Assembly: GCA_964187785.1 (NCBI GenBank)
Contig: OZ076409.1
Location: 56,856,001-56,920,000 of the forward strand
Length of the DNA stretch: 64,000 nucleotides
Origin: Amphiscolops sp. MND2022
Taxonomy: Eukaryota
Direction: 5' to 3'
Position 1 is the stretch's first letter. Every line of letters begins with the position of its first letter. The notes below the pieces were generated by a model, which saw only the letters and a program-made list of their open reading frames with translations, was not told the origin of the DNA and did no database searches. The position numbers were made by a program, and so were the translations under genes. Of the stretch, positions 1,188-64,000 are shown piece after piece.

Positions 1188-1188
1188 G

Positions 1189-9523: not shown

Positions 9524-9538
9524 TAGAAACTCGTTTTT

Positions 9539-9556
9539 TGGCGACCACAGAGGGAT
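9539..9556 (+). promoter_or_regulatory. PBS, tRNA-Arg(TCG)-like, 15 nt downstream of the LTR
   Basis: TGGCGACCACAGAGGGAT resembles the complement of the tRNA-Arg(TCG) 3' end as recalled (TGGCGACCACGAAGGGA). Confidence 0.65.
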
Positions 9557-15185: not shown

Positions 15186-16276
15186 AAGAAAGTGGCAAAC
15201 GATTAAGGCCCGGGGAGTCGACTAAGGCCCGTTGAGTTCAGTGGAGGATAACAGCACTTCCTTCAACCTCATTGTAAACTGACAACGCCCTGAGGATTTC
15301 ACTACCTTTGGTAAGGGACACTTGGCAGTGTGATGCCTTTTCAAGCAGCTATTTATCAATCTTGCCGCCAAAACCTTAGTTTTAGTCGTGTAAACGTCGT
15401 CATATTTTTGTTTCTCTGCCTCTTTGAGAAGTCTAACTCAAAATACTTCTATAAATGTAATAAGTAACCCAAAAATTCTACATGTATCTCTTCGCCCGAA
15501 AGGTGCGATTTTTGTTTTTTTTTCAAAGATTTCCAGTAGTTTCCTCCAAATTTCTGCGTGGTATCCAGAAAAAACGGGAGCTCGCGCGCTCCAGATATCA
15601 AAACTGCAGGATTTTGTCTCTTTTCGGCTACTTTACTCCAGTGCTTATGCTTATGAGCAGTTCGTAGTTTGCTTCTGATGGGTTCCTTGACAGATGCTAC
15701 TGAACTCTATACAGGTATGGAGCTTCACATCAGTGCGTGTTGCCCAAACCAAGCCGAACTGTAAAAAAAAGTATCGAAGAAACAGCCTGTTTTCCTTTTA
15801 AACAATGGTTTTTCCACTGAAAAAAATTTTTAGCGAAAAGAACTTTTAACTGTGCTGCAAACTGAAATTTTATTGCCGTGGAAAAGATGTTTTTCATGAG
15901 AACCACGTGCGTTTTGGAGCCTGAGCGCTCCGCAAAAGAAATTTTAGGCGTCCAAAGACAATGTGATAGCAAGATCCTACTCAAATTTGGTGCAGAAAAC
16001 TCGTGCTAAAAAAGTGGTGCTTTTTTGATTGATGTATGGAATCTTGGATTTGATCAATTTCAAGGTGCATTTTTGAGTACTGGTTCTCTAGCTCTCGAGC
16101 TAGCTCTGTTTAAACAGTTTCTGGACGATGCAGGTTCTCTGGATGGCAAGAAGCAAGACCTCAGGGTTGCCCAATCAGCAAAAGATGACAGTGCCACTGA
16201 ACCGTTGCAACATCACCAGTTTGATGTTGCGATGTATTCAATGCCAGCCTTTCAGCATGACAGGGACGTCATGCTT

Positions 16277-16292
16277 AAAGCCCGGGGAGTGA
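16277..16292 (+). promoter_or_regulatory. PPT-like tract of element B
   Basis: AAAGCCCGGGGAGTGA directly before the 3' LTR. Confidence 0.65.
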
Positions 16293-17077
16293 TGTAACGG
16301 CAAGCTGTGGTACAGCAATATCAACCGATTTTGCAACTTTGACATGTTCAGAAATTTTGTCAAAAATTCTAATCCGATGTGTGACGTGGCACTGAGCATG
16401 TGATTGCTCTTTTCGCTGTTTCCACGAAATTGGCAGGTACTTCGACAACAAAGAGCAAGAACGAGCAAAAACACGGGCGCGCCGCCATGACAGAAGCCAG
16501 AGACGGCAAGAACATCTGAAAATAGACTCTTTTTGATGTGCTAACCCCGGTTTTTATCGATTTTCAGCATTATGCTACCCTATGTAGCAGAAACCGGTAA
16601 AATGAGTCTTTTTGCTTAATTGTCCTTGTTTGGTGCTTGGAGCCCCTGCGCCCCAGCTTTTTAGCTGTGTGGTTTGCCATTCCGATGTGTGCTTTGATGT
16701 ATTTTTGCTGGATTTAGCCGTTTGAACTAGCGCTTGCGCTAGTTTGTGCAATATTTGATCTTATTCCCCATTTTAGATATTATTCCGATATAAGATGGAA
16801 AATGGAATTTTACACTGTTTATTCTTGGCATTGTTTTTAAAGGCTGTCTAAACGGTGGTCCCAGGCAAAGGGCCGGAGACGGATGCCCGTTATTCTCAGC
16901 AGTTACAGACTGGGACCAGGCCAGAAAGCGTCCTACAAGACGGTTCCCCCACCTTGGGACTGGCTCCTTCGGAGGGAAAATGAGCTAGGGCTGCGGAGAT
17001 CTAGGTCCCGGATCCTATTCGCTGTTCTAGTTCCTCCATTCTAAGTTGCGGTTCAAGCGCCAGCGCTTATCGTTACA
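16293..17077 (+). repeat. 3' LTR of element B (785 bp)
   Basis: Matches 8740-9523. Confidence 0.92.
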
Positions 17078-24216: not shown

Positions 24217-24354
24217 TACCTTCTGTTTGAAGCTCACGATAATAGATTAAAATAAGAACATGAAAGATCTCCGATGCAATTACACGTGTAATTGCATCGG
24301 AGATCTTTCATGTTATTATTTTAAACTATTATCGTGATCTTCAAACAGAAAGTA
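24217..24354. repeat. 138-bp loopless palindrome
   Basis: Centred on 24285/24286 (ACAC|GTGT); perfect over 24257-24314 and four mismatches over 69-bp arms. Confidence 0.95.
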
Positions 24355-38312: not shown

Positions 38313-38968
38313 ATTATATTCTTTTATCCGGAATATGGTTTTATTATAGATCAACTTGAAACTTCAACACTGACTATGTCTCGTGAATGACTTTTTTTAA
38401 TAGATGCGAATACCTGCCTACCTCCAGGAGAGATCTAAGAGATTTCCTAAAGAAATAACGTCAATAGTTTAGGTATGGCGTTTTAACAGAATACGGTATT
38501 TTATTAGTGTAATTTTCAAAAAGATAGAAGTTCGTTAGATACACTTCTTAGATACAAACAAGACGCCCGCTAAGCACCGGGAGTTTTTCCGCCTTCTTCA
38601 CCTTCACCAACTGAGCCATGGCTATTTTAGGAGTGGGGAATAGTATTTTAAGTATAAGATATAAAATTCAGTGATTTTAGATCTTAATCCCTTCAGATAT
38701 TATTCCCGTCCTGAAAGTTTAGACCTTATTCCCTTTAGATCTTATTACCGTTTTTACTTTAGATATCATTCCGCCCTCTAAGTTGTTTTAGTTACTTGAC
38801 TATTTACCTAACTAGTAACTGAAGTATTCAAGTAGCTATATAAAATAATCAAGAAGTTGAGTCGACTGAGGACCTGGAAGGAGATTTGGCAGAATTTCGA
38901 GAAAAAACGCAACACAGATCATGATTTTCCTCCCCTATTAAATGTGGTCGGAAAACAAAAATCATAAT

Positions 38969-40463
38969 TGTAAGAACTTTGACCCGTGGTCTCTCTTAGA
39001 TCTCCCACAGATCGTGAATCTTTCTTTGCAATCTTTGTTTTAGGCCCAGATGCGTTTTCCCTATTTTCCTGGCTACTAGGGGACGAACTGGCCTCGGTGT
39101 CCCTGTGCCTCGTAGAGGACATTGAGTTAGCAATGTTTTGAATTTCTGGAATGACTCTTTCAGCTATAGCTGTTGTAATAGCTCTATTTATTTGACTATG
39201 CATCATTGACATCATAGAGTCCATTTCTTGAGATAATCCGAGGTTAAATTCATTTGAGAAAGTTTCAAAGAACTGTCTGACTTCATTTTGTCTCAGTAAG
39301 TCATTTTCATGCGAGTAATCTCTATATTCATTTTCTAGGTACGCGTTTGTATCAACGTCCCCGTGGGTCGACGACTGATCTATTGCTTCAGCTAATTCCC
39401 TTTTTATGGGATTATTATTGCTATTTCCCACCATCACGTCTAAGTTTTCAAAGTCGGACATCATGTCCATTTCTCTAGATTTCCTAGCTTTCGCTTTCTG
39501 ACGTCTAGTAGAAGGCATAAGAGATTATTGCAAGAGGTAAGAATTTAAATTAAGTTCTCAAGCTTGCAAACAGAGTTTATTTGAACGGTTTTAACAAACT
39601 GGTTCTAACGGTATCAAACAGTTGTTCCCCGGGGCTACGTGTCCCGGCTATATATACATGAATTTACATGACATTCAGTATTTCAACAGTCATGAGCTAA
39701 AAATAGCCTTAAGGGCTTTCTAAATATAGACTCAGCTATAAATAGCAACAATGACATTATCGTGACGTCACTCAGTTCAAAGGACTCCCCTGTTGGATGT
39801 TATGGCGGGAAGCCCGTGAGTCCGCAAATGCAATAAACAGCATACATGTATGAAATAAAACAGATTACATGCGTTTCAACATTTAACTGCTTTTCATGGC
39901 ATTGTAAGTAATAGCACTCTGTCTTGCATCATTCATGAGTCCTTTTGGGACTAATTATGTATATTGTAAGTTATTAGAGCATCATCAATTACGTAAGCAA
40001 TAGCACTTACTGGTTAGCACCTTTAATTTAATTGTGGACTCAGTGTCCGAGTGACACGAGCGGACTAGCACTTTATCGACCGACGGCATATGGCCGTCTA
40101 GTCCTTTGATTAAATAACTCAGTACAGCAACAAATGAAAGTATTACTGCACTCTGATTGGATAACGAGTTAATTGGACTGGTAGACCAAGGCGACAGGCA
40201 AGAAATCATTCGAACGCGTTTCCTTTACCTGTACGCCTTGGTGTCCAATTAACTTACGTATTAACACCAGTATATTAACTTTACATGTGATTATATAATA
40301 CCAAACATATTGTGATATAAAATATGAGGTTTGCATGACTTCTTAAGATAATTTTAAGAGTTTTGTCTGTATGTTTATTTTAGAGGAAGTGTGTAGGGCT
40401 GCACTTTCTTATAATTGTGGCAAATTGAATATACATTCCCATCACAGGCGGACGCCTGGGACA
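38969..40463 (-). repeat. 3' LTR of element C (1495 bp)
   Basis: Matches 53881-55375; TG...CA termini; contains a second copy of the gag 5' part (ORF 38919-39518). Confidence 0.95.
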
Positions 40464-41214
40464 CTCCCCCTGGAATCAGCATAAAACAGCCCACTCTCAA
40501 TCTTTCCAGGAGGGCCAGTCTTCTTGCGTTGAACTGCTCGGCTGATTCTCCCCGTATGGCCGTTTTATGAAGGTAATCAATGACTGCCTCATCTTGAATT
40601 TGTTCCTCAGATTTCCCGCAAACGAGGCAATCTGTACAGCCTGAGATATAGGGGTTGTCACCGCCATTCGGTCCCCTGAAGTGGATGCCGTTGGAATGTT
40701 GCTGACTGTTACTAGTAGTGGCTTCTGCTGCTATCCTCCAGTCGCCTGACGGGTATTTATCCCTGGCTGGGGGTGACATGGGCGTGTCGACCATGGGAAT
40801 TAGTTGGCTGCATAAATTGATTGGGTGGTCATTTCTTAGCCGTGAGTCTCTCGCAATTGGTCCTCTGCCCATTCCCAAGTCAAAGTAGCCAGCATCGAAC
40901 ATAGGCCCAGGGATGTACGGTAGCCTGGGAGTTGCAGCACGAGCCACTTCTTGTTTACTGGCAGTAGAGGGAATTGGAATACTTTCTGAAGTTGACGGTA
41001 ATTCCATCTGCCTCTCCACACACTGAGCCAGGAGGGCCACCTCGTCGTCATCGGACAGGCTTTCCAAATCGTCAACAGATGCACTGCTAGCGCATTCCAT
41101 GTCGTCGTCTGAGGAAATGTAGATTACCCCGTCTCCGGGTGCTGCCCCTTGGAAGTCCTCAGGGTAATATTCCGGGGACTCAGAGTCAAAGTGGCTTGAC
41201 AAGAATTTATCCAT
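40375..41214 (-). CDS. Accessory sense ORF of element C (279 aa; acidic N-terminus, SIM-like VIYISSDDD, CxxCxxC), last 89 nt inside the 3' LTR
   Basis: Intact ATG-to-TAA ORF, GC-richer than the flanks; reads through the PPT (IPGGVSQA); no signal peptide or TM segment evident. Confidence 0.75.
   Translation of the reverse strand: MDKFLSSHFDSESPEYYPEDFQGAAPGDGVIYISSDDDMECASSASVDDLESLSDDDEVALLAQCVERQMELPSTSESIPIPSTASKQEVARAATPRLPYIPGPMFDAGYFDLGMGRGPIARDSRLRNDHPINLCSQLIPMVDTPMSPPARDKYPSGDWRIAAEATTSNSQQHSNGIHFRGPNGGDNPYISGCTDCLVCGKSEEQIQDEAVIDYLHKTAIRGESAEQFNARRLALLERLRVGCFMLIPGGVSQASACDGNVYSICHNYKKVQPYTLPLK
40464..40473 (-). promoter_or_regulatory. PPT of element C
   Basis: Minus strand CCAGGGGGAG abutting the TGTCCC LTR start. 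Confidence 0.8.
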
Positions 41215-42493
41215 GATCAATTTCTTGGCTATTTTGGAATTGACTGAAGGTTTTCAAGTTTTGACTTTCTGAAGAGTTGCTGATTTTTGAGAATGAAACT
41301 GAAACAATGGCGATTTTACTCTCCGTCGACTTGCGGGAGTTTTCGTTTGAGTTTCCCGGGGTTTTACTCTTCCTTGCTGACTAAATTTTCAATAACAAAA
41401 TTCCTTCCTTCTAGAACCTTTCAACTAGCCGCTCGGTCTTCTTTGAAAATGCCGACCGAGGCTTTGTTGACTTACATCACCTCTATCAACACTCCCATAT
41501 TAAACGCGTCGCTTCAAGTGTTTATTAACACTCATTTAGCACTTAAGAGTTTCAAGAGGGTGAAGATATGGCATACGGCTACGCCGTCCTTCAGCAGTTT
41601 TGATTAGCCAATAGGAATGCAGCATGATTCTTCCTGAATGAAAATGGCTCCTCAAGGTCGTAAATCCATATAAGGACTAATGTAAAATGACCTTGAAATT
41701 GAATGAAATCTTGGAAAATCATGAAATAATTTGTAAAAATGGTACAGTTTCGAAATAAATAAGTGATTGTAGATATCGCTGGCAGACTCCATCCACATGA
41801 TAATGTAAATTGTAAATAATTGCAAATTTGACACCAAATTGTATAGCCACGAACTCCAATTTTGACACTTTGTCACATTGCCGATTCACCTTTCAATTCT
41901 TTTACATTTGAATTCTCTCCAATTACTCTCTTTGTATTATCGCCAGTATTTAATCTTCTTTAGTCTTCTAGTCTTTGAGTCGTATTTATCCGTACTTTGT
42001 CTGAAGTTTCCATTTATATTTTCTCCTCGTTACACCTTCTGTGGATTTCTTGGGTCAACCTAGGACAATCGACACTGAGTCCCTTTTGGCAAACCCACCC
42101 ATATTCAGCATTCTCTCCCTCTTTCAAAGAAGAATCTGCTCCTCTCGCTCAGCAGCTGCTGTATAATCACTATTTCGGATCCAAAATACTTCTCCTCTGC
42201 AGATCGACCTCCAGGACTGACAATTCATCCGGCATCCGCAATCTGCACTCAGAACTTTTCTCCTTCAATTTAGTCCGCACAGGTCAGTAGCGTTTCAGGG
42301 GTTTTCATTTCTATCTTTGGTAATGAACTAATTTGAGGCTTGATCAGGGCTCTCATTTCATTCACGTACTTCCTGTCCCGTAACTTAAGCATTCACTTGA
42401 GTTCAAATATCTACTTCCGGAAGGTTTTTTAATGCGGCAATGGACTCTTTTTCAGGAAGTTCTCCGCTTGAATTTATCTTTTTCTATTTAGAC

Positions 42494-45400
42494 ATGTCGT
42501 CCGAAGAGCACAATGAAGTTGTTCCCGCTACCGCTACTGGGACTCTGGTAGAAGAAGAAGTTCCACAACAGTCCGAGGAAACAGTCGTCAACCAGACCGC
42601 CACCGCAATAAAGGACGCTGAGTCCAAGCAGCCTGATCCGCCGAAAGACAGCTCATCTAAGACTGGTCCAACCCCCAGCCCTTCCACCGATGAGAGTATC
42701 TCTGCGTACATTGAGCGTCAGTTGCAGACTCTAGGTTGTCAAGATACTGGACTGGACATCTCTTTCTTGCCTCCTACCACATCTGCCATCGTGGACAATG
42801 TGCTAAAGCCAACCACTGCGAAAGCTTCGGAGTCGGAGCCGATCCCTCACGTCGCAACCGGGCCGGCAGACAAGGAGTCTCCCGAATTTGAGACTGGCCG
42901 AACAATTGACATCGTCAGTGAAGCTGAGTTTTCCGTCACCAAGGCGGATTATTTTCAAACAGACACCAGCGACGTTGAAGAGCTTCTCGATAGTTCTGGA
43001 GCTGAGACTGTCAAACAATCTCCATTCTTACTTACAATAGAGACACAAAGCGCCACCGGGTCCGAGGCCCGTAAGGAGACTGAACAATTGTCCTCAGCAG
43101 GGTTGCCAGACGTCTCTTCCCCAAAGCTTTTTAGTCCTACCAAGCCTCTATCTGCTTCAGCTCGCACTCTCATTAATCAACATTTCAGCGAGACCAATCC
43201 AAGTATCCTTCCAGTAGGACACGCAACAGTAGCCTTCAATCAAGGACAGGTACATTCCATTTTGCGCGCCGTCTCCACTGAGACCATTACCTCTTCTTTA
43301 CACCAAATGAAGAATATACTGGAAGAAGCGATTCGGGTGGGGTCCGTTCCCAAGGCACCTCACAAGGACCCGGTAAACAGCGGATCAAATGTTTCCGCAA
43401 ACAGGCTGACAGCCCTGGACCAGATGGGCAAGATAGCGACATCGGGACTGAGGGGTACACCAGTGGAGCCCTTAGTTCAGAGGATGAGTTTGTCATCAAC
43501 TCACAAAGGACTGGTAAGGAGCTTAACATCATTCATCCCCCAAGTCCTCCTGGCCAGGCTTCGTCCCTGGCGCCTTGGCCGACACCCATGCACCAAGTCC
43601 CCAGTCCAGGTTTCTGCTCAACTGATTATGAGCCGTTGGCCACATTGAGCACTGACCAAGCCTCCGCTTCTAGTCCACCCCGCAAACGTCGCCGTCTTCC
43701 AGGACGCACTGGTAAGATAATGAAGGAGGCTTATTTCAAAGGATCCAATCGACCCGAACATTCGTCACTGGCCCACTCGACCCGGAGCACAACAAGCATA
43801 AATTCTATTGTCAAATATGCAAGACGAATGTTTCCATTTTCACAAAAGGTGCCCGGGAGATTGTCCGTCATTTCCAGTGTGAATCCCATTTCCGCAAGGA
43901 CCAGCGCTGGAGATATGAACATCTGAAGAAGAAGGATAAGGTGACTGGCCGAATCGTCTATGAGGTCAGGGGGAAGAAGGGCCAACTGCTAACACCTCTG
44001 GAACTTGAAAGAGAGAAACCCCTCTTTATGCAGGCTCCTTTAGTAGAAACTGGATGCAGCTACCCATTTTACGAGGACCATATGGCAGGCCTGGGATCCA
44101 TAGCTGGGCAGGAAGAGATCAGACTGTGCGTCCAAATCTCCATGGTTGCACTCTTTGCTCCTCGCTGTGAGGATTTATACACCCTTGAGTTGCTGTGGTC
44201 ACAGATTGGCACTGTAACCAATCTTCAGAGCCTGTTCTCTCCATACGATTGGGGTTCCTCCACATTGACAGTAAGTATCGTTAGTTCCTAGCCTCAGGGT
44301 TCTTCCGTACTAGCATAGCTTAGGTATATTTTCATCCTTGTTGATTTGTTTCAGACAATTTTCCATCACATCTTTCTCTGTGGAATTGCGGACATCGCGT
44401 ATCATGTCAGTGTCACGGGCCAATACTCTTTGGAGTTTGAGATGCGAGGCACCTACAGCTTTGTCTCGATTCGTTTCTGGAAGGGCGAATTCCTCAACGT
44501 CTTCTGTTTACTGCGTTACCGGACTGCTTCAGAGCCTGCTGCCGGTTTCTTGTTGGCACTTTCCCGTCTCCTGTCCGTGTTGTCAACACAGCCCCAAATC
44601 GTGAGTGTGTCTGGATGTCCCGCTGAGCTAATCCCGCTTCTTGAGCGTTCTTGCTTCTTCCAAAAAGGATTTGAGTACCCCTTTCGGTTTGATGCACTTT
44701 CTTTGCCAGACATGATGCACGAACGATGGGGGAAGCGTGTTTGGAACCATCAGCTTTTTTTCACAGCTGAAGTTTCTGGTTGCCTTCTTGGACGGCTGCA
44801 GTGGACAGCCCTGGGCCGCCCTAATGCCTGAATTCGTCAAGGTAAGGGTATTGTCTGTTCGACTGTAGGTCCAAGTTTAGACTGCCTCTAATGCACATAT
44901 TATCTGTAGGCTATGTCTACCCATCGTGTGGAGGTCGCTGCTGTGCCAACCATATGTTCGGAGCTGATTGCGAACTGGAAGTCTGTGCACCAACACTTGA
45001 CAAAAATTGCGCCTCCACAAGTTAATCAGGGGGTCAAGAGCAAGCCCCAAAGTCTCGAGTGGGAAATCATATCTGATGATCTCTTCACCATCAAACTAGA
45101 ATTCTTCGCACGAATTGTTCGTGATTGTTAGTATTTTGATCTTTTCTTTCTGTTCTGAGGACACAATGTCTCAGTTTTATTTGCCATTGAATAAAGTTCA
45201 TACAAGGTGTAGCAGATTGACATATTTGGTCCAATGACGTCGTTAGGACCAGGTGGGACAATAATATATTTTGTTTTCCAGACACCAAGAGCTTTGAGAG
45301 TCAGTTTGCACAACGAAGGGATAGCGGTTTCTACACTTTCCGCGAATTTCATACCTTCATCCGAAAACTGGCTGCCCGGGCTCTTCTCCCCAAACACGTA

Positions 45401-48400
45401 CCTGAGATGCTGGACTGGAAGTCGCTATGTGACTTACAAGGACAGGACTGGCGACAGCTGTCAAATCGCGATTTCTTGAGTCGGTTGAAACTCAAAGAGA
45501 ATCTGGATGCTGCATGCCTCGTTCGTGTCAAGAAGGTCTACAGTGAGAAACAGCCGTCCCCCGAAGGAATAGAAGCAGCGGTTGAGGCCACACGGGACGA
45601 TTTCGCCACCAAGGCTCGAGGTTACCTCGTGCATCTTTTGAAAGTCTTCCTTGCTGTCCTCAGCAGGGTTGCCAGACGTCTCTTCCCCAAAGCTTTTTAG
45701 TCCTACCAAGCCTCTATCTGCTTCAGCTCGCACTCTCATTAATCAACATTTCAGCGAGACCAATCCAAGTATCCTTCCAGTAGGACACGCAACAGTAGCC
45801 TTCAATCAAGGACAGGTACATTCCATTTTGCGCGCCGTCTCCACTGAGACCATTACCTCTTCTTTACACCAAATGAAGAATATACTGGAAGAAGCGATTC
45901 GGGTGGGGGTCCGTTCCCAAGGCACCTCACAAGGACCCGGTAAACAGCGGATCAAATGTTTCCGCATACAGGCTGACAGCCCTGGACCAGATTGGCAAGA
46001 TAGCGACATCGGGACTGAGGGGTACACCAGTGGAGCCCTTAGTTCAGAGGATGAGTTTGTCATCAACTCACAAAGGACTGGTAAGGAGCTTAACATCATT
46101 CATCCCCCAAGTCCTCCTGGCCAGGCTTCGTCCCTGGCGCCTTGGCCGACACCCATGCACCAAGTCCCCAGTCCAGGTTTCTGCTCAACTGATTATGAGC
46201 CGTTGGCCACATTGAGCACTGACCAAGCCTCCGCTTCTAGTCCACCCCGCAAACGTCGCCGTCTTCCAGGACGCACTGGTAAGATAACGAAGGAGGCTTA
46301 TTTCAAAGGAATCCAATGGACCCGAACATTCGTCACTGGCCCACTCGACCCGGAGCACAACAAGCATAAATTCTATTGTCAAATATGCAATACGAATGTT
46401 TCCATTTTCACAAAAGGTGCCCGGGAGATTGTCCCTCATTTCCAGTGTGAATCCCATTTCCGCAAGGACCAGCGCTGGAGATATGAACATCTGAAGAAGA
46501 AGGATAAGGTGACTGGCCGAATCGTCTATGAGGTCAGGGGGAAGAAGGGCCAACTGCTAACACCTCTGGAACTTGAAAGAGAGAAACCCCTCTTTATGCA
46601 GGCTCCTTTAGTAGAAACTGGATGCAGCTACCCATTTTACGAGGACCATATGGCAGGCCTGGGATCCATAGCTGGGCAGGAAGAGATCAGACTGTGCGTC
46701 CAAATCTCCATGGTTGCACTCTTTGCTCCTCGCTGTGAGGATTTATACACCCTTGAGTTGCTGTGGTCACAGATTGGCACTGTAACCAATCATCAGAGCC
46801 TGTTCTCTCCATACGATTGGGGTTCCTCCACATTGACAGTAAGTATCGTTAGTTCCTAGCCTCAGGGTTCTTCCGTACTAGCATAGCTTAGGTATATTTT
46901 CATCCTTGTTGATTTGTTTCAGACAATTTTCCATCACATCTTTCTCTGTGGAATTGCGGACATCGCGTATCATGTCAGTGTCACGGGCCAATACTCTTTG
47001 GAGTTTGAGATGCGAGGCACCTACAGCTTTGTCTCGATTCGTTTCTGGAAGGGCGAATTCCTCAATGTCGTCTGTTTACTGCGTTACCGGACTGCTTCAG
47101 AGCCTGCTGCCGGTTTCTTGTTGGCACTTTCCCGTCTCCTGTCCGTGTTGTCAACACAGCCCCAAATCGTGAGTGTGTCTGGATGTCCCGCTGAGCTAAT
47201 CCCGCTTCTTGAGCGTTCTTGCTTCTTCCAAAAAGGATTTGAGTACCCCTTTCGGTTTGATGCACTTTCTTTGCCAGACATGATGCACGAACGATGGGGA
47301 AGCGTGTTTGGAACCATCAGCTTTTTTTCACAGCTGAAGTTTCTGGTTGCCTTCTTGGACGGCTGCAGTGGACAGCCCTGGGCCGCCCTAATGCCTGAAT
47401 TCGTCAAGGTAAGGGTATTGTCTGTTCGACTGTAGGTCCAAGTTTAGACTGCCTCTAATGCACATATTATCTGTAGGCTATGTCTACCCATCGTGTGGAG
47501 ATCGCTGCTGTGCCAACCATATGTTCGGAGCTGATTGCGAACTGGAAGTCTGTGCACCAACACTTGACAAAGATTGCGCCTCCACAAGTTAATCAGGGGG
47601 TCAAGAGCAAGCCCCAAAGTCTCGAGTGGGAAATCATATCTGATGATCTCTTCACCATCAAACTGGAATTCTTCGCACGAATTGTTCGTGATTGTTAGTA
47701 TTTTGATCTTTTCATTCTGTTCTCAGGACACAATGTCTCAGTTTTATTTGCCACTGAATAAAGTTCATACAAGGTGTAGCAGATTGACTTATTTGGTCCA
47801 ATGATGTCGTTAGGACCAGGTGGGACAATAATATATTTTGTTTTCCAGACACCAAGAGCTTTGAGAGTCAGTTTGCACAACGAAGGGATAGCGGTTTCTA
47901 CACTTTCCGCAAATTTCATACCTTCATCCGAAAACTGGCTGCCCGGGCTCTTCTCCCCAAACACGTGCCTGAGATGCTGGACTGGAAGTCGCTATGTGAC
48001 TTACAAGGACAGGACTGGCAACAGCTGTCAAATCGCGATTTCTTGATTCGGTTGAAACTCAAAGAGAATCTGGATGCTGCATGCCTCGCTCGTGTCAAGA
48101 AGGTCTACAGTGAGAAACAGCCGTCCCCCGAAGGAATAGAAGCAGCGGTTGAGGCCACACGGGACGATTTCGCCACCAAGGCTCGAGGTTACCTCGTGCA
48201 TCTTTTGAAAGTCTTCCTTGCAGACATCAGCCTCAATGCTGGTATCGTAAGAGGCTTGGTCAGTTTTGATCCAGTAGCCCTCCTGAGTCTGCCGCTTGAA
48301 CAGGCCACATATTGTTTCTCCGCTTTATATCGATCCTTCAGTTTGCGAGGATGGTTGGAGAATTCCCCCGAGGCCGATGCCCGAGACGAGTACATTGATT

Positions 48401-49104
48401 TTGTGGAGCACTTCCGTCAAGCAAATTCTGGAGCCAAGGACACCCCGGAGGTCTTCTCCGACATGATTGCCTTTCTGATGGACATGCTCGAATTGAAGTT
48501 GCGTAAGCATTTGTTCTACATCTTCCAGTTGAGTTGTCTGTGTCTGACTTCTAAATTGCCAGAGCTCCCAGCTATCAAATTCTCTGGAGTTGACTGCAAT
48601 GATCCCCGGAGTAGGCTTTTCGATGTCATCATGCCTGCACAGTCCTACCTCGCTAATGTGGCTAATTCAGTAGCTGTGTGTACTACAGAAGCTTCCCTGG
48701 ATACTTTCAAGGATTTGGAGTTTCGTTTCAGTAGCGGCAACGTCCCAGGAGATCCTTGGACTCACGTAGACAGTTTCGGCAAGGCCAATTTGCATAAGAT
48801 CTTGATCTCAGTTTACAAGGCTCTGGGCAAGAGTGTTCGTCTTGACAACGAGTCCATTTCCAGTTCTTCGTCTAAAGAAGGGGGAAACATCGTAAGCAGT
48901 CCCCCGATAAAGGCAAGAAAGTTAGCTTTCGGATGGTTAGCGGAACTGAAGCCACAAAGTCCTCCGATGGAAACACCCCCGGAACTTCTAAATCTTAAAT
49001 GTACAAATGTACATTTGTTTCTAGACTGTAATTGTTGTAAACTGTTTCGTATTTATTTCATCTATTTGTTGATATGTTCGTGGCCTTGTATCATTCGCCA
49101 CTGA
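42494..49104 (+). pseudogene. Antisense spliced gene inside element C: about 1,200-1,250 aa zinc-finger protein with hAT-transposase-like motifs, disrupted here by a tandem duplication
   Basis: Reconstructed exons 42494-43088+45655-46838, 46923-47408, 47477-47693 and 47849-49104 (or 48998 with a late frameshift); GT-AG introns 46839-46922, 47409-47476 and 47694-47848 all preserve frame; CQIC-x16-H-x5-H finger; NLS-like PPRKRRR. Confidence 0.8.
43089..48221 (+). repeat. Head-to-tail duplication, 43089-45654 and 45655-48221 (about 2.57 kb, about 99% identical)
   Basis: Junction ...gtcttccttgc|tgtcctcagcagg at 45654/45655; ORF pairs are duplicated; the first copy carries three extra 1-bp indels. 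Confidence 0.95.
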
Positions 49105-49228: not shown

Positions 49229-52200
49229 CTAGTATCTGTATTCTTCAGTGAAGTTGGGGTTGGGGTTAGGTCGAAGATTGTATCTCCCTCCTCTAGAGTT
49301 TTCTTCAGAATTTTCTTTTTCCGATATTCCGGGCACGGTAATATCTGCGCCTCTATATGAAACATTTCCTGCATCTTGTAAATCATTAGTGACGTCATTT
49401 TCATTTTGCGTACTATTAATCTTTTCATCCCATAGTGACGACACGTCTCGGCTATTACGCGATTGCGTTCGCGTTTCGTTCTCGTTGACGTCATCCTCGT
49501 TAGAGCGTTCGCTGTGTCCTTCATTCTCGCTTGCGCTGCCACGTTCATTCTCGATGACGTACTTTTCTACGCTGCCGTCCTCAGTGTCGGTCGGCCGGCG
49601 TGTGGCCACGTCGGTCCAATCGACTTTTCTCGGTTCAAATAATTCGTATTCGAAATCCACTTCCCATGAGATACTGTACAAGTCGTCCTGTGGTACTACA
49701 ATCTCATTGTCAGGTTGTAATTTTTCGCCATCATATTTGTCCTCTAAGGGGGCATTTGGAGCGAATTTCTTTCGTCTAATACGATGGAGTATTTGCGTTT
49801 TATTAGTATTCAATCGACGCACAATGTAATTGTCATTGGACAATACTGTCTGAACGACAGAGGGGCCAATCCAGCGGTATTCCCTAAATGGGATTTTTGA
49901 TGCTTGGTTATCCGCTTTAGGTTGTAAAACGAAGCAATAATCCTTCTCTTCAAGCGGAGCGGCTTTGGCCTTTCGGTCGTAATAGTCTTTGTTTTTTAAA
50001 TAGGACTGCATAATGTTCTTTTTAGTCTGGACAATGAGGATTTGTGTCCTCTGTTGTACTTCCTCCGCAAATTCCGTAGTTGGCAAGAAATTTTTATTGG
50101 GGTTATTTCCCAATTTGTGATCTAGGACGTTAAAAGGAATTCTGCCATGAAAGATTTTACTCGGCTCACATCCAATACTGGAGTGGTATGTAGTATTGTA
50201 GTTGAGCACGGCCAATGGCAAATATTTATGCCACTGACGTCGATATTCCCCTGAGGCCATTTTCAAGTTGGTCTTGAGTGAGGCGTGCGTCCTCTCGAGC
50301 TTGCCAATTGTTTGCGTGTGCTTTGTAGTGGCGCATTTGAGTGTTATGCCTAAAAGTTGAGTTATCTCAGCTATGATGGTTGATGTAAATGCGGACCCTT
50401 TGTCCGTAATAAGAGTTGTCGGTAAATATGAATGTTTCGTCATAATGTCTATTATTACTTTGGCTACACTTGTGGCTGTTGCCTCAATTAGCGGGTAGGC
50501 GAATAGGTATCTTGAAAAAACATCAATAGCTGTCATTACTGTTTGGTAGCCTCCACTGGTCGGTAGATTTGGTAACAAATCAATTTGCATGGCGTCTTCA
50601 GGACCGAGGTCCCATTCGGGCAGATTTAGCAATTCCGGTGTAATAGTATTATTAGGGACTCTTTTGTCTCTGGCACACGTTTCGCAGCCTTCTACCCATT
50701 TTTTGACATGTTTAGCTATTCCGGGATAGTAGTATTTTTGGCGAATTTCTTGTAGCATTTTAGATATGCCTGGGTGTCGGTGTGCCATGCCATGTATTGC
50801 TTGTAGTAATTCTTTCAACAAATGTTTTGGCAGTAGAATCTGGTGGTATTTGATTTGGCCTGTTTCATCATAGTATTTCCAGTCACGATTTCGTCTTTGA
50901 GGACAATTCGGTCTAGGTTATTCAAATAATGTCTATACCGAATGTCTTGATGGAGGATTTCTTCAGAGTATTCCTCATTCCGAATTTTTGCTTTTTATTG
51001 AAGCAAGATCGGATCTTTGGATTGTTCTAGCAGTATTTGGTTAGTTCTGCGTAGTTTCTGCGTGAAATTAGTATATTCTTCTACAACGTTTCCAGATATG
51101 GCATCAATCTGGATGGCGGTCTCTGCGACCTTGAGTCCTGTTTTCGACTGCCTTTTTCGTTCCCAAATTTGTACTTCCGTTTCATTGTCTTCCTCAGTAA
51201 AGAATACTTGTTCTACTTCGGACACACCGGCCGATTGTACATTGACCTCAATAGGTTGTGTTTCAACGTCCGCACGAATCTTCAGGACTAACTTTTCATT
51301 AGGGTCCATTTCCATACGGGACAAGTAGTCTGCCGCTGTACTGTTTTTGCCTGGAATGTGAGCTATAGTGAAATTGAACTTAATGACAAAATCACAAGCA
51401 TTCCATAATGGCGGCGGTACGATCTTGGTCTGGAAGAACCTTGTGACCGATTTGTTGTCCGTAAGGATAATTACCGGTTTGGGTGTCCCCCAGAATGTAT
51501 GTCCGAATTCTTTAAATGCGTAATATATAGCGAGAAATTCTTTCGCATATATCGACATTTTGAGTTGGGAAGGAATAAAAGTTTTCGAACCATAAGCAAT
51601 AGGCGCGTAGGATTTCTTGACAGAAGTGAATTTCTGGTTTGGGTCGTCTTCAGTGAGTATAGCGAATCCTGCTGCCGTAAAGCTGGCATCTGTCATCAGG
51701 ACTAGCTGTCGATTCGGCAGTGGTTGCCTCAGGGCTAACTGCCTACATCGATCCAGGTCTCTATTGATTTCGTTAAATTGTTCGATTAACTCGGATGTCA
51801 CTAAGACCTTCTCGTCCTTCTTGAGTAATTGAAAGAAGGGTACCAATTTTTCTGAAAGTCTCGGTATGTAGTTTCTGTAGTAATTGAGGAATCCGAGGTA
51901 TCTTTGCAAGGCCTTTTTGGATTTCGGGAATTTAGTTTTTTCTAGGAAGTTTGTAATAGCTTCCTTTTGAGGTTTGACGCCCTCAGGGGTGATTGTTCTT
52001 CCCAGAAAGTCTATTTCGGTTGCGCCGAAATGGCATTTGTGCTTAGTCAATTTTAATCCAGCCTCTCTGATGCATTCAAATGTGGCTCGGAGGTTTTTGA
52101 TCAAGTGTTCAGCATCATTTGCCGCTATGCCAATATCATCGACATATTGCGCACATTGATCAGCCTTGATAACTCGGTCCAAGGATTCCCTCAAAAAACT

Positions 52201-52752
52201 GGAGAAGGCCGACAGGGCTCTACTGAGTCCTTGAGCCAATCTTCTGTAAGCAAAGGTTCTGCTGGCAAAATTGGAGGCCAGCATTTCAATAGACCTTTGG
52301 TCTGCCATTTGAAGGCAGTGATATGCCTGTGAGCAATCGAGTTTGCAAAAAAGCTTCTTCCCGGCCATATGTTGCGCAGCATCCGTCAAGGTACTAACTC
52401 GGTGGTTATTATTAATATAATCATCGGAGATCAAATTGTTGATCTTCCTAAGGTCTACTAATACCCGAAGCTTCCCATTTGGCTTCTTTTGCGCAAAAAT
52501 AGGACTGGCGTGTTTTGAGAATGGTAATGTGGTTAAGATACCGTATTTGTGGAGTAACGCCAACTCAACCAGGATATCCTCTTTTAAATTGATGGGAGTC
52601 GGTAAGCTTTGGCTATAGGCAGGTGAGTCGTCCTTCGGGGTCAGTTTGACCGTGAACTCCTCGTTCATCCCAATATCAAACCTATGGCGGGCGAATATGT
52701 CGTGAAATTCTACTAAGAGAGCTTCTATTTGTTTGATTTCATGCTGCTGTAG
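49229..52752 (-). pseudogene. pol: Pol of element C: RT, RNase H, integrase; protease missing; stop at 50995 and frameshift near 50880
   Basis: RT: LRVLVDLRKIN, KLDCSQAYH, LAQGL, QYVDD, DFLGRTI. RNase H: TDAS, AKEF, TDNK, ADYLSR. Integrase: H-H-CETC, IDLL, ITDKGSAF, GKLERTH and GPY/F-like WIGP. Confidence 0.95.
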
Positions 52753-54430
52753 TCAGTCTTTTTGGTATTGGTTTGGCTTGAACTAGTAGCCGTCGAGTCA
52801 CTGGTTGTTTTAGATTTGCCTTCCGAGGTTGAAGCATTTGCATCCTTTTGCTCTGTCTGCAGTCTCTTGGGACGCAGGTGGGCACCAGCGCCCTGCCAAC
52901 ATCTTTCAATTGAATGGTTCTCTTTTTCCCGCATGTGTCACATGGTGGGTAAGTTGGGCGCTGTGGTTTTTTGCCATCTTTTTCCTCCCTTTCTTTTTTT
53001 TTCTTGAGTTTAGGACAGCTCTTGTAATAGTGTCCCGTTGCTTTACAATAGGAGCATTGGGCATCTTTGTTGGTATTGATGCCATTAGACAGCAAATTGC
53101 TCTGATTCGTGGACGCCGAGGCCATAGTGGCCATTGGCAAGTCATCTGACTCTTCTAGTGCATTGAGTTCTAGTTCTTTTTCGAGATGAGCAACAATTTC
53201 TTCGTACGTTCCGTTCTCCAACCGGGCCATGTTGACAGATTGTTTTAGTTTTGGTGGAAGTTTTGCGTATAGTAAGCTGTCAATCATGCTTTTGGCATTT
53301 TCGCCAAAAGCCTTTTCAGCCCCTTGGTTCAATTCTTCTAAGAAGTCCGGCAATTTCATGGTACTTGGGTCAAACGTCAGTCGGTGCCATTTGTGTTTTG
53401 CCGTTGCTTGGGATTCCGGTTTAACATACTTTCTCCGGAATATGACCAGTACGTCCTCCAGAGTCTGACGGTTGGTGGAATTTATGTTCCTGAATGTCTG
53501 TAATGCCCCTTTTCGTAACAATGAAAGAAAATGATTGATTTTCATCTGTTCTGTCATTGTAGGTTGCATTTTGATCATCGTATGGAACAAGTCCTCGAAA
53601 AGCTCAAATTTTTCGTTTTTCCCGTCGAATGTCATTGGCGTTGTTTGGACAGGTCTAATGGTCATATTGTGAGGTTTGTTCTGTAAATTGACTAATACAT
53701 CAGCCAATCTATTAAGCGGGTCCTGAGATGTCTCTGGGACCTCGAGGTCCGGGGCTGTCAGAGTCGCATCCAGAGAGACATTGTGGTTAGATTGTTGCCT
53801 CTCCAGGTTGGGGATTGAGTGGATTCGTCCAGTCAGAAATTCAGGGATTTGCTGTTGGGTGTAAATAGCTCCTGTCACCATGTAAGAACTTTGACCCGTG
53901 GTCTCTCTTAGATCTCCCACAGATCGTGAATCTTTCTTTGCAATCTTTGTTTTAGGCCCAGATGCGTTTTCCCTATTTTCCTGGCTACTAGGGGACGAAC
54001 TGGCCTCAGTGTCCCTGTGCCTCGTAGAGGACATTGAGTTAGCAATGTTTTGAATTTCTGGAATGACTCTTTCAGCTATAGCTGTTGTAATAGCTCTATT
54101 TATTTGACTATGCATCATTGACATCATAGAGTCCATTTCTTGAGATAATCCGAGGTTAAATTCATTTGAGAAAGTTTCAAAGAACTGTCTGACTTCATTT
54201 TGTCTCAGTAAGTCATTTTCATGCGAGTAATCTCTATATTCATTTTCTAGGTACGCGTTTGTATCAACGTCCCCGTGGGTCGACGACTGATCTATTGCTT
54301 CAGCTAATTCCCTTTCTATGGGATTATTATTGCTATTTCCCACCATCACGTCTAAGTTTTCAAAGTCGGACATCATGTCCATTTCTCTAGATTTCCTAGC
54401 TTTCGCTTTCTGACGTCTAGTAGAAGGCAT
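52725..54430 (-). pseudogene. gag: Gag of element C, starting inside the 5' LTR; frameshift in the second zinc knuckle near 52920
   Basis: 563-aa ORF with FDGKNEKFELFEDLF capsid-like region and CSYCKATGHYYKSC; CDTCGKK/NHSIERC is split across frames. Confidence 0.9.
53869..53880 (-). promoter_or_regulatory. PBS of element C, tRNA-Leu-like
   Basis: TGGTGACAGGAG directly after the LTR CA; one mismatch to TGGTGTCAGGAG, the complement of the tRNA-Leu(CAG) 3' end as recalled. Confidence 0.6.
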
Positions 54431-55375
54431 AAGAGATTATTGCAAGAGGTAAGAATTTAAATTAAGTTCTCAAGCTTGCAAACAGAGTTTATTTGAACGG
54501 TTTTAACAAACTGGTTCTAACGGTATCAAACAGTTGTTCCCCGGGGCTACGTGTCCCGGCTATATATACATGAATTTACATGACATTCAGTATTTCAACA
54601 GTCATGAGCTAAAAATAGCCTTAAGGGCTTTCTAAATATAGACTCAGCTATAAATAGCAACAATGACATTATCGTGACGTCACTCAGTTCAAAGGACTCC
54701 CCTGTTGGATGTTATGGCGGGAAGCCCGTGAGTCCGCAAATGCAATAAACAGCATACATGTATGAAATAAAACAGATTACATGCGTTTCAACATTTAACT
54801 GCTTTTCATGGAATTGTAAGTAATAGCACTCAGTCTTGCATCATTCATGAGTCCTTTTGGGACTAATTATGTATATTGTAAGTTATTAGAGCATCATCAA
54901 TTACGTAAGCAATAGCACTTACTGGTTAGCACCTTTAATTTAATTGTGGACTCAGTGTCCGAGTGACACGAGCGGACTAGCACTTTATCGACCGACGGCA
55001 TATGGCCGTCTAGTCCTTTGATTAAATAACTCAGTACAGCAACAAATGAAAGTATTACTGCACTCTGATTGGATAACGAGTTAATTGGACTGGTAGACCA
55101 AGGCGACAGGCAAGAAATCATTCGAACGCGTTTCCTTTACCTGTACGCCTTGGTGTCCAATTAACTTACGTATTAACACCAGTATATTAACTTTACATGT
55201 GATTATATAATACCAAACATATTGTGATATAAAATATGAGGTTTGCATGACTTCTTAAGATAATTTTAAGAGTTTTGTCTGTAAGTTTAATTTAGAGGAA
55301 GGGTGTAGGGCTGCACTTTCTTATAATCGTGGCAATGTGAATATACATTCCCATCACAGGCGGACGCCTGGGACA
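53881..55375 (-). repeat. 5' LTR of element C (1495 bp)
   Basis: Matches 38969-40463; TATATATA at about 54568-54561 and AATAAA at 54493-54488 on the minus strand, upstream of the gag ATG at 54430. Confidence 0.95.
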
Positions 55376-55550
55376 ATAATGTAGTAATAAGATTTTATTG
55401 TCTTTCTTAATACTTTGAAAATCTTTTTTTTTCATTTCACTTACCAAGAGGTTTGAGTAAAACATGAAAAATAATCTGAGTAGAACAAATAAAATGTGCG
55501 ATGATTGACTCTGAATTTAGGAGATTCTAATCGCAGCTAAGTATAAAATG

Positions 55551-60555: not shown

Positions 60556-62997
60556 TGTCACAGCCCGCTCCCGGTCTGGCTTGTTGTTGCTGACGACTGA
60601 AGATCGGGAGAGGACATGGAGGTAATCTGAGATTCCCAAAATCTTATTTTAACTGGTAACTCTAAAACTTCAACTTTAAAATAAACTGTGACTAAAAATG
60701 TAGAAATACGTCTACATTGCGCAAACCTTAAACGAAAATGAAAACAGAGAATGGAATGAGCCAAAATGAGTTCACGCATTTCCGGTAAGACGTATTCGCC
60801 ACGTCAAAATAGCAACATTCGCCACCTGAAAACTAAATTAAAACTAAATACATTCTAAAACAAAGAAATCATAGTCTAATCTAAATGAAAACGTAGTCAA
60901 AATCATCTCCCAAAGAACATCAATCAGATCTAAAATTAAAAAAACACTGAGACGGCACGCCGAAGAAACTAAGCCTTTTCTAAGAAAGGCAGCCTAATTA
61001 CTCTTTGAACAGCAATTAGTGTGGTTTAGGACGTCAATATTACGCTGAGCAAACAAAGCAGCGGAGAAAATAAGAATACATGTATATTTGTCGTCAGTAA
61101 AACGCAGACAAGTTTGGAGGTATACCAATTGACGTCACTGCCTCGTCTATGCGTACCGGAAAATCATTTCAATTATCCGCCCATACTAATAGCATTACTA
61201 GAAATCATTCCAATTTACCGCCACTGTGACGTCACAGCGCCGGCAGCTAAATAAGAAGCCATTCTCAAGATACTCGTCAGCATTGCGTCAAATTAGTCAA
61301 AATCTCTACTCTGCCAAGAAAACTCGTCAACATGACGTTGACAAGTTTATGAAGCTTAAAATCTGCCAAGAAAACTCGTCAACATGACGCTGACAAGTTT
61401 ATGAAATTGGATGATTTAGGTAAATTTGCCCTATTAAACTAAAAAATTACGCTAAAGTAACGTTAAGAACCTATCAAATTCAATTGTTTTAACCTGTCTA
61501 AGATAAGGAAATGGATATTTATCCAAATAAGATCAATATGGGAAGATATATGTTATGAATCAGTTTTAATTAAAAGTGAAGGAGTAACGATTTGCGTCAG
61601 TCTCACGACAATTAAAATATTGTTCACCCGAACCTAAGGCAGAGAATGTTTTCTAACTGGAATTTTTTCAGTACTCTACATGAATAAGAGTCACAGTTTA
61701 TTCTCTTGTTATTAAACAAGTAACCCTGGTTTTGCCACTTGAAGTTTTTTTATATACACTCCAACAGTGCCGTGGAGCCTGGATTTGCAACCTGTTAACT
61801 TATACTAGTGCTTTTTGTATAACGTTAACTATTATTTTTTATGAAAGCGATCATCAGTGTTGAAGCGCATTAATAGCGTAAACGGTAAATTTGATGTTTT
61901 GTTGCCATTGTTATCACTTTTGTAAAAACTTGTCGCACTTGTCGCGACATGTCAATATTGTTGATGATGAATATATTTGGTACTGTGATCTTAATTTTGT
62001 CTCTAACGAAAAGAAAGAGTCCAAATTCATAGAAATATCGTTCCTAGCGTCATTTAAATAATCATAATTTGGAAGTTAGTCATATGTTGCTCATGCTGAA
62101 ATTCAAAATCAGGTATTTTTGTTCACGTCAGCGTCATCTCAGCGTCAATTTCCCGCGAAAAAGCAGTAAAACAGGGAAGCATTTCCGGTTTGACAGACTG
62201 AAGTAATATCTACTTCCTGCTTGGGAGGAAGCGAAAGGACGCCGGGATGAAATGATATGATCATGTTTGATGACTAACACTAAATAAAGTTCAACGTGTC
62301 TTAAAATTTGACGAAATGTCGACGCAAATTTGGGATCTTCGTTATTTTTTCATCAGTAAAACAGGAAGTGACTAATTGTTCGAGGAAAATTAGGGAATAT
62401 AGTCGTGATCAAATGATGCTGGGAGGGTATAAATACAGTAAAATTCGATGATTAGGGGACTCAGTCTTTTCCAATTGTGAAAATCAGTTATTTCATAACT
62501 TGCTCAATTTTCCAATACTTAATCTCAACTCTGTTGAAAATACTCAGAAAGTAAATTGAATTGCCAGAAATCAATTTCTCTCTACATCGAAATGTCGACT
62601 ACCAGAAGCCAGAAAAGAAAGAACAATCAACAAGAAGTTGTTGAAAACGTAAGTGAAGGTTTTGTTTCGCCAGTCTTAGCGGAAAACTCTTGTTCTTTGA
62701 TTCAAGATGTAGTTGTCGCAGGTCCGTCAAAACCTAAATCTCCTAGGGTAGAGAACAGTGTCTTGGAGAGTTTGACAGTCTCTTTAAAAGAGGAGATCAC
62801 ATCTGAGATCAAAAGTCTTCTTATGGAATCCCAAAGAGAAATGTTGAAGCTCCTAAGATCTGAAACAGGAGAAAATGTAAGAAATAGCATAATAGACGAA
62901 ACGGAGAATAAAACGAGGAGCTTCCATACTCCGACGAAAACAGTACGAATCAACTCTACATCAAATCACGACTCTGACACGTATGTAAGTCGTAACA
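60556..62997 (+). repeat. Putative 5' LTR of element D (about 2.4 kb)
   Basis: TGTCAC...GTAACA; TATAAA at 62428 and TCAGT at 62461; 52-bp-period duplication at 61310-61405. The partner LTR is not in the window. Confidence 0.55.
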
Positions 62998-64000
62998 TGG
63001 TGACAGGAGTCCTGACCGACTCCACAAACCACCCGAAAAGACCCAAAATAAGGTCCCTGGGTCAACCTGCGGCCAAAGAACCTCCAGCGGCGGCCAGAAC
63101 ACTATTCGAAGCAGACAAAACTGACTCCACCACACTACATATGACGAGGGCCCTAACGGCATCACTCCCAACCTTCGATGTGAAATCTGACAAATTCGAA
63201 ATCTTCGAAGACCTGTTCTGTAATAACATAAAAATGTACCCACACCTCACGGAACCCCAAAAAATCAACTACTTCCACTCACTGCTAAGAGGAGACGCCC
63301 TACAGGCGTTCTGCAACATTGAAGACTCCAAGAAGGACTCGCTAGACGACATAATGACGATTTTTAAAAGACGATTTGGAGACTATTTATCAATGGCAAA
63401 AACCAGATGTGAGTGGGACTCACTCAAATTTGATCCCGCAACACAAAAACTACATGAATTCCTGGACGTACTCCAAAAAACGGCGAAAGATGCTTTCGGC
63501 TCGGAAGCCCAACAGTTTATCGACAGAGCAATCTACGCGAAAATGCCAGATCATGTAAAGAAAATCCTCAACAGAGAGTATCTTGAGGACAAACCATACA
63601 ATGATACAGTACTCCATTTGGAGCGGGATATGCAACTCAACGGCCTTGGAGCACCAGATGAAGTAACTCTGGTACCACTAAATGAAATATAACCGGCTCA
63701 AACAAAACCAGAGACAAAACAAATCGAGAACACGACGCAGAACACCAAAAAAGGATACTGCTTCTATTGTAACAAATTCGGACACTACAAGGCCGAATGC
63801 AGAAAACTGAAACGCGACAACTGGCAGCAAACCCGGAAAAATAATGGACAAACCAATTACAGCGCTGGCAAACCGCCCAAATGTGACACTTGCGGCAAAC
63901 CCCACAAGACGGAAGATTGTTGGAATGGAGCTAACTCTGCCAACGACCCACGACCCAAACGTCATAACACACAAGAACGAAAGCCGGACTCCTCCGCCCA
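62592..64000 (+). pseudogene. gag: Gag of element D, premature TAA at 63690-63692
   Basis: MSTTRSQKRK start; FDVKSDKFEIFEDLF; reading through the stop in frame gives CFYCNKFGHYKAEC and CDTCGKPHKTEDC knuckles. Confidence 0.9.
62998..63010 (+). promoter_or_regulatory. PBS of element D, tRNA-Leu-like
   Basis: TGGTGACAGGAGT; same first 12 nt as the PBS of C. Confidence 0.65.

Follow-up and report, generated by a model that had tools for sequence, protein, structure and literature searches.

A fixed antisense gene of probable transposase origin in a Gypsy retrotransposon clade of Amphiscolops sp.

A Ty3/Gypsy long terminal repeat (LTR) retrotransposon of the Amphiscolops sp. MND2022 genome carries a large, intron-containing accessory gene on the strand opposite to gag-pol, and the element was analysed here in a stretch of 64,000 nucleotides (assembly GCA_964187785.1, contig OZ076409.1, positions 56,856,001–56,920,000; hereafter the window, whose numbering is used unless stated otherwise). 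A model's first look at the letters alone (the sequence-only reading) had proposed that this gene is derived from a hAT transposase and was domesticated by the retrotransposon. The accessory gene proved to be a fixed component of a large Gypsy clade and to be under selection. We propose that a hAT-like transposase gene was captured by an ancestor of the clade and that its product would be expressed, imported into the nucleus, and bound to the DNA of its own element, with a transactivating or anti-silencing effect; to this statement as a whole we assign a probability of roughly 50%.

The genome searched, 1.07 Gb, is the source genome of the window. The last exon of the accessory gene, used as query, returned 7,700 first-look candidates; the 116 that were scored had identities of 88–100%. 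Copies were chosen by the presence of the accessory gene and by best score, with solo copies and gene-less sister elements outside the sample. Twenty close copies, taken as 20-kb regions, were compared together with 17 elements from diverged lineages, which were located with P0112, P0054, and P0040 and whose last exons and reverse transcriptases (RTs) were 33–52% and 72–91% identical, respectively, to those of the window. In all 37 elements, the accessory gene was tail-to-tail with pol. Every one of the 20 close regions showed the gene tail-to-tail with integrase, and the order ORF4 (open reading frame 4), spacer, accessory gene, and integrase was found in 19 of them, the remaining copy being cut short upstream. 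The gene ended 151–275 bp from pol in 17/17 diverged elements, and RT and gag were seen in 16 of these, the last one running into Ns. Integrase sequence was also found directly past the gene end in 30/30 short loci, one of which was the window itself. LTR pairs could be identified for 29 of the 37 elements, 16 of the 29 pairs being at least 99% identical, and a 5-bp target site duplication (TSD) accompanied 23 of the pairs. Within a sample chosen by the gene, the accessory gene thus has the features of an antisense ORF between pol and the 3′ LTR (aORF-3R), being present in most copies and conserved like the core genes.

Selection was quantified as the ratio of nonsynonymous to synonymous substitution rates (dN/dS) in three pairs of naturally open copies from different subfamilies; 36 pairs were included in a further comparison. 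The dN/dS of the core (residues 400–1,150) was 0.043–0.058, with bootstrap limits of 0.023–0.075, and that of the N-terminus was 0.15–0.19 in the same three pairs (dS 0.24–1.2). The RT of these pairs showed values of 0.013–0.105, indicating that the accessory gene is similar to RT in this respect. The flanks of the gene were colinear with the LTR element in all copies. As the sequence-only reading had noted, no terminal inverted repeats (TIRs) surround the gene: the longest inverted match was 10 bp, a length that 77 of 200 shuffles reached or exceeded, and no separate search was made for an 8-bp TSD. The fixed position, the shared introns, the purifying selection, and the lack of TIRs strongly support the proposed domestication by a retrotransposon, and the sampled genome copies agreed with the expected constant place, conserved introns, and dN/dS below 1. 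A nested DNA transposon, or a passive passenger without a role for the retrotransposon, would suit the broken copy in the window and the 10 of 19 complete close copies that are not open. This explanation is already largely refuted and exceedingly improbable, being opposed by the lack of TIRs above chance, the same position in 37/37 elements, the strong purifying selection between lineages, and catalytic residues that were not kept.

In the window, the host element lies on the minus strand between a 5′ LTR at 53881–55375 and a 3′ LTR at 38969–40463. The two LTRs are 1,495 bp long each and 99.3% identical, have TG..CA termini, and are flanked by the 5-bp TSD ATAAT (left 38964–38968, right 55376–55380). 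A Pfam scan recovered gag-like, RT, RNase H, and integrase parts in the Gypsy order, all on the minus strand: gag at 52739–54430, the RT and RNase H part of pol at 50995–52752 (RVT_1, RT_RNaseH), and the integrase part at 49229–50917 (Integrase_H2C2, rve), which is tail-to-tail with the accessory gene. A primer-binding site (PBS) starting with TGG and a short purine tract adjoin the LTRs. By its LTRs, TSD, domain order, PBS, and purine tract, the host is a Ty3/Gypsy LTR retrotransposon, and the TSD-bounded element with a gene antisense to gag-pol is as it had first been described. Because gag starts within the LTR, the 3′ LTR repeats the first ~183 gag codons. The gag start lies ~550 bp inside the 5′ LTR (53881–54430, minus strand), both LTRs hold the gag N-terminus, and gag reads through the PBS, which is translated; a gag start inside the LTR was also seen in diverged lineages. 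The window element is without ~1.6 kb between gag and RT that is present in other copies. Two divergent genes lie between pol and the 3′ LTR, namely the plus-strand accessory gene and ORF4 in the gag-pol sense.

The accessory gene starts with an ATG at 42494 and is preceded by a 209-bp intron in the 5′ untranslated region (UTR) at 42283–42491, which contains three GGAAGT-type cores. GT..AG was kept at all four introns of the close copies, this upstream intron included (19/19). The window copy carries a tandem duplication of 2,567 bp (43089–45655 and 45655–48221, 98.9% identity, with a short shared junction stretch), so that each coding intron is present twice. Coding exon 1 of the first unit (42494–44270) encodes a Ser/Thr/Glu-rich N-terminus and contains frameshifts near 43338 and 43739; the first duplication unit as a whole (43089–45654) includes introns at 44271–44354, 44842–44909, and 45127–45281 and a third frameshift near 44736. 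The second unit (45655–48221) contains the nuclear localization signal (NLS)-like PPRKRRR at 46242–46262, the zinc finger CX2C-X16-H-X5-H at 46377–46457, which was also modelled, intron 1 at 46839–46922 (84 bp, phase 0), exon 2 with the modelled RNase H-like core at 46923–47408, intron 2 at 47409–47476 (68 bp, phase 0), exon 3 at 47477–47693, and intron 3 at 47694–47848 (155 bp, phase 1). The last exon (47849–49104) encodes an all-helical domain, as modelled, and a low-complexity tail, with a fourth frameshift near 48887. A basic run in the NLS-like region was found with a loose pattern in 20/21 aligned products. The three coding introns with their borders and phases, the upstream intron, the finger, the NLS-like run, and the motifs quoted in the sequence-only reading were all found in the sequence. 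Its gene of about 1,200 aa at 42283–49104 was right for the family and wrong for the window copy, with its duplication and four frameshifts: 9 of 19 complete close copies are open over 1,189–1,223 aa, and the ~1,200-aa product belongs to the family as a whole, its sequence being taken from other natural copies. The duplication is private to the window, since none of the 20 other close copies carries it. In other copies, too, the accessory region is privately duplicated or rearranged internally, namely in L109 (positions 327–6547 of that locus; 3,110 bp), L065, L018, and L020, which suggests frequent template switching. An 818-aa open frame (L115, reverse strand 3901–6354) was considered as an intronless copy and rejected, since its finger and core are missing through an internal deletion that keeps the frame.

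To map the introns, a spliced protein-to-DNA aligner was applied to 21 elements, with the first 380 residues left out. Four intron sites were shared at the same codons, in 21, 19, 17, and 16 of the 21 elements, with intron lengths of 66–255 bp, and retention would disrupt the frame for 72 of the 73 predicted introns. Introns 1, 2, and 3 of the window correspond to the sites found in 21, 19, and 16 elements; the site found in 17 is an extra phase-0 intron inside exon 3, which the window lineage does not have. The protein alignment was gap-free wherever an intron was absent, each absence was confined to one supported clade, and all four sites were present on both sides of the midpoint root of the accessory-gene tree. 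With the root placed by midpoint, the simplest reading would be three precise losses from a four-intron ancestor. Introns antisense to the genomic RNA are not spliced from it and are copied along in retrotransposition, which they therefore survive; their precise loss points to a spliced transcript that recombined in the course of reverse transcription. Trees of the accessory gene and RT were built from 20 rows, L097 being left out for lack of RT. The deepest split (8 versus 12 rows) was the same in both trees with support of 100/100 in both, and the trees disagreed inside the 12-row clade, suggesting module swapping there. Last-exon matches at ~14-kb spacing were observed at C9:14.566–14.622 Mb (five), C5:3.368–3.397 Mb (three), and C11:38.66–38.69 Mb (three), which suggests head-to-tail arrays of whole elements.

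To characterize the protein, the structure of the finger and exon 2 was modelled from the natural open frame of L091, which reads through a 90-bp intron. The model consisted of a C2H2 finger and an RNase H-like core, with exon 2 predicted as helix-b1-b2-b3-aA-b4-aB (b1–b3 antiparallel) at a predicted local distance difference test (pLDDT) score of 65–83. All four finger ligands were invariant in 16/16 rows, and the finger segment was the best conserved part between lineages (49–61%, versus 33–53% for exon 2). In a Foldseek search against 350,542 chains, Hermes ranked first (E 1.2e-3, probability 0.99) and occupied 6 of the top 8 rows. An RNase H-like core downstream of the finger, as in hAT transposases, is thus predicted by the model, and RNase H-like chains filled the match lists. 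The Atlas search gave recognition 2335 for the finger and exon 2; its top three rows were without a name (0.88–0.90), and among the matches listed all seven rows with a Pfam family were hAT-related (0.86–0.88, leads only on the scale of the tool), namely DUF4371, FAM200-ZBED5, DUF659, Hermes DBD, and ZBED1/zf-BED. For the finger, Atlas rows carried zf-BED and zf-C2H2_12, and Pfam gave only a sub-threshold zf-C2H2_ZN292. These fold and Atlas features support a DDE-transposase origin for the N-terminal half. In view of these predictions, the protein very probably descends from a DDE transposase, and its donor was probably a hAT element, an assignment that stays below formal significance in sequence and profile tests.

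Several results weigh against the hAT assignment. The L091 model had a mean pLDDT of only 58.6, with 30 intron-derived residues included; the best Foldseek E value missed 0.001, and TM-scores were ~0.2. VIA-align ranked Pelota, retroviral integrases, and an Argonaute complex (Z 7.2–7.9) above Hermes (Z 6.4, root mean square deviation 4.1, 118 aligned residues, including as many as 15 intron-derived ones). By itself, the fold is therefore generic, and this comparison confirms an RNase H-like fold and not the family. Searches of Pfam and of PDB sequences with the accessory protein gave no significant hAT link. When hATs of the own genome were searched, a hidden Markov model reached a best E of 0.08 against their frames, which is not significant, profile-profile comparison did no better than shuffled controls, and pairwise profiles gave no significant match. 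The last exon was modelled as all-helical (pLDDT 74) without a family match, PF05699 (hATC) included; Atlas gave only weak Sey1/GBP helical-bundle matches for it, and its fold had no match in the PDB, including a PDB-wide search and a repeated look, or in BFVD. What stands of the hAT derivation first proposed is therefore the N-terminal half, with Hermes as the best fold match and the Atlas families, short of formal significance; the ZNF862-like assignment and the matches of C-terminal motifs were borne out by no tool.

These results also bear on the possibility that the accessory role is real and the donor was not a hAT element but another DDE superfamily, a transposase-derived host gene, or a remodelled integrase, which is not exclusive of the functional readings considered below. 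The rank of retroviral integrase cores over Hermes in VIA-align and the lack of a significant link to own-genome hATs speak for such a donor, and at least four spliceosomal introns would suit a host-gene stage. Integrase cores are not known to have a long helical insertion, which counts against a remodelled integrase, and Foldseek and Atlas independently point to hAT. The accessory protein also shares with hAT transposases (Hermes and the ZBED5/FAM200, DUF4371, DUF659, and ZBED1 groups) the order of N-terminal C2H2-type finger, helical part, RNase H-like core, and long helical region, an order taken in part from the available text of PMC10368747. A donor outside hAT is thus considered unlikely, and a hAT-like donor is preferred. 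The own genome contains several hAT transposase frames of 600–700 aa (L128–L142), with a split DUF4371/PF05699-type copy in L135; a family search of this genome for DUF4371 returned none although a DUF4371 frame exists there, showing that the search was insensitive.

Relatives of the accessory protein were also searched more widely. A profile search of 1.84 billion representatives gave 823 matches; the best 150 of the 823 were all 116–418 aa long, and the 10 that were looked up from these 150 were ENA singletons. No full-length relative (729–2,080 aa) was found among 4,160 candidates, which is a weak test. The divergent last-exon relatives P0221, P0161, and P0125 had no match in the own genome at strict cut-offs of 1e-90 to 1e-150 and may represent the family in another genome. 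In a metagenome scan, none of 78 pattern matches was confirmed as a relative.

To assess the catalytic site, positions were mapped by range offsets (model 245 to integrase 57; model 211–335 to Hermes 138–264) and not by residue-level superposition, with what we take to be the catalytic numbering D64 and D180. On this mapping, the first acidic position would be the Glu of YSLEFE at 47001–47003, where 106 of the 122 rows with a residue have Glu and 6 have Asp, and the second (47181–47183) would be Gly in 128/133 rows. The positions expected for CxxH read RF(E/D)(E/A) in 133 rows, and no Cys-x-x-His pair was found after the core. The region of the expected Glu helix was Pro-rich and variable, with no conserved Glu after the CLCL motif beyond an adjacent one in 32/42. 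An intact D-D-E triad was thus not found on this inferred mapping, nor was CxxH. The first Asp, which had been called lost, is indeed not Asp; rather than being simply lost, the position seems to be occupied by a near-invariant Glu, with the second Asp, the CxxH, and the catalytic Glu apparently gone. Because the second position is Gly, the CxxH is replaced, and the Glu helix is Pro-rich, the protein does not qualify as a member of the active hAT transposases and is predicted not to be a working transposase. That a metal-binding or nuclease site persists in remodelled form, so that the protein is not a pure binder, is very unlikely: the near-invariant acidic first position would fit such a site, as would Asp139 (42/42) and Glu179 (39/42) in the last exon, whereas the Gly at the second position, the missing Cys-x-x-His, and the Pro-rich, variable stretch of the Glu helix argue against it. 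The preferred hAT-derived binder also differs from hAT transposases in its 400-aa low-complexity N-terminus and in the lack of a detectable hATC domain, and its gene moves by reverse transcription inside an LTR element.

A conserved non-coding block at 41600–41900, between the divergent genes, showed 84–96% identity to four other copies, with flanks mostly at 72–86%, and TAGCCACGA at 41844 was found in 11/13 lineages. This block is a candidate internal promoter. In four comparisons, the 5′ intron was more conserved than the next exon (86–98% versus 69–95% per 100 bp). This intron holds the palindrome CTTCCGGAAG at 42414–42423, whose 9-base core occurs in 35/37 elements and nowhere else in the window; it was common to 13/13 lineages, whereas shuffles reached 5 at most. 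Two further GGAAGT-type cores are found at 42368 and 42454, usually ~45 and 41 bp from the palindrome. A T-run followed by GCGG after the palindrome and TGATCA were also observed in this cluster (42360–42465), to which TAGCCACGA at 41844 may be added. The cluster was kept across lineages whose proteins are 33% identical. The GGAAGT cores may serve an internal promoter as sites for host ETS factors, or they may be bound by the finger of the gene itself. Presumably they fit the consensus of host ETS factors at least as well, which counts against binding by the accessory protein. According to the available text of PMC10368747, the BED domain of Hermes binds AAGT beside AT-rich DNA, cooperatively on a quasi-palindrome. 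The cluster as a target of the accessory protein is treated as a lead and not as a result.

ORF4 (40375–41214, minus strand) encodes 279 aa with an acidic N-terminus, the motif V/IYISSDDD, which we take to be SUMO-interacting-like, and a CxxC pair, and its last codons lie in the LTR. It is divergent from the accessory gene and recognisable, at ~275 aa, in nearly all lineages, its conserved C-terminal block ends inside the LTR, and its dN/dS was ~0.07–0.08 in two unsaturated pairs. A Pfam search of ORF4 gave no match.

We suggest the following mechanism. An ancestor of the Gypsy clade would have acquired a transposase gene with introns, of DDE type and most likely hAT-like, which was placed antisense between pol and the 3′ LTR and then kept. 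In integrated copies, an internal promoter that also serves the divergent ORF4 would drive transcription of the gene, and the transcript would be spliced. Cutting chemistry would have been lost, with the nuclear signal, finger, and RNase H-like scaffold retained, and the protein, acting as a multimer, would most likely bind DNA of the element that encodes it, such as the GGAAGT cluster. Its acidic, low-complexity N-terminus might recruit or repel chromatin factors, so that the family stays transcribed, making the protein a putative transactivator or anti-silencing factor. The precise intron losses would be explained if reverse transcripts now and then recombined with the spliced mRNA. VANC proteins, the anti-silencing proteins of VANDAL/MuDR elements, are likewise nuclear and regulate the element that encodes them; they offer a functional analogy only, with no homology expected. 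More tentatively still, the transposase, domesticated with its introns as a sequence-specific binder of its own element, and an ORF4 bearing a SUMO-interacting motif might form a two-gene counter-silencing or integration module that helped the clade reach thousands of copies.

The same origin could also be joined with a role at integration, in which the protein would bind new cDNA or the integrase complex for nuclear entry or for tethering to chosen chromatin. The nuclear signal, finger, and transposase-like scaffold would serve such a role, several 8–9-mers of the LTR were conserved above shuffles (ATTTGAAC in 12/13 lineages, shuffle maximum 7), and the BED domains of Hermes bind subterminal repeats to build the transpososome, in the available text of PMC10368747. 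However, the strongest conserved cis-cluster is internal and not at the ends, and in two weak tests of targeting, the 23 TSDs found were all different and the flanks of 13 elements shared only A/T runs. A primary role at integration is therefore regarded as doubtful, and a role in keeping the family transcribed is preferred.

Antisense accessory genes of LTR retrotransposons have been described at the same site in plant elements and in Boty; their origin and function are open questions, and a 2020 review, in its available text, found no similarity to other transposons or viruses (PMC7264820). The plant antisense ORFs resemble the accessory gene in place, orientation, presence in most copies, and conservation like that of core genes, and gene23, one of them, is nuclear, has its own promoter, and was proposed to have a DNA-binding regulatory role (PMC7264820, as far as available). 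The accessory gene differs from them in its size of ~1,200 aa, its four to five spliceosomal introns, and its recognisable finger and RNase H-like core. A "transposase 28" (TRP28) domain is reported for the antisense ORF of Retand (available text of PMC7264820 and PMC11963269); Pfam gave no TRP28 match in the accessory protein. Outside plants, brtn of Boty/BcGypsy1 from Botrytis cinerea is likewise an antisense extra gene of a Gypsy element (Zhao et al. 2011, as cited in the available text of PMC8365987 and PMC7264820). The ORF3 captures of Vesta and Juno in bdelloid rotifers, a DEDDy exonuclease and a GDSL esterase, are likewise non-env, enzyme-derived third genes in animal LTR elements, probably exchanged between mobile elements; they differ in being sense-type with intact catalytic residues, and the available main text of PMC5408684 does not contain the words intron or transposase. 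HBZ of HTLV-1, an antisense-encoded nuclear regulator of its own element, is a functional analogy only (PMC11963269, available text).

Our literature search, with subscription journals, Repbase, and supplements outside it, returned no description of an LTR element whose antisense gene derives from a transposase. The layout itself is known; the literature searched contained no counterpart for the size, for introns that are conserved and in places precisely lost, for a probable descent from a transposase, or for the pairing with ORF4. Because the family has a probable donor, purifying selection that reaches deep, numerous young copies, and a candidate binding site, both origin and function become testable. 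If our proposal is true, a transposase would here have been domesticated by another mobile element and not by a host, and for the first time the origin of an antisense accessory gene in a retrotransposon would be traced to a transposase. The intron losses would then record recombination between genomic cDNA and spliced antisense mRNA, and the family offers a natural archive of introns lost precisely from a genome that is reverse-transcribed.

Further repeat-bounded elements lie in the window at 1–6110, 8740–17077, and 62538–63692, and the accessory profile gave no match in these three. Direct repeats of 1,188 bp and 785 bp with ~99% identity were observed in these other elements, together with a gag-like frame at 1217–2056 and a related gag at 62538. 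An inverted repeat of 69 bp, spacer-less and 94% complementary, was also observed at 24217–24354.

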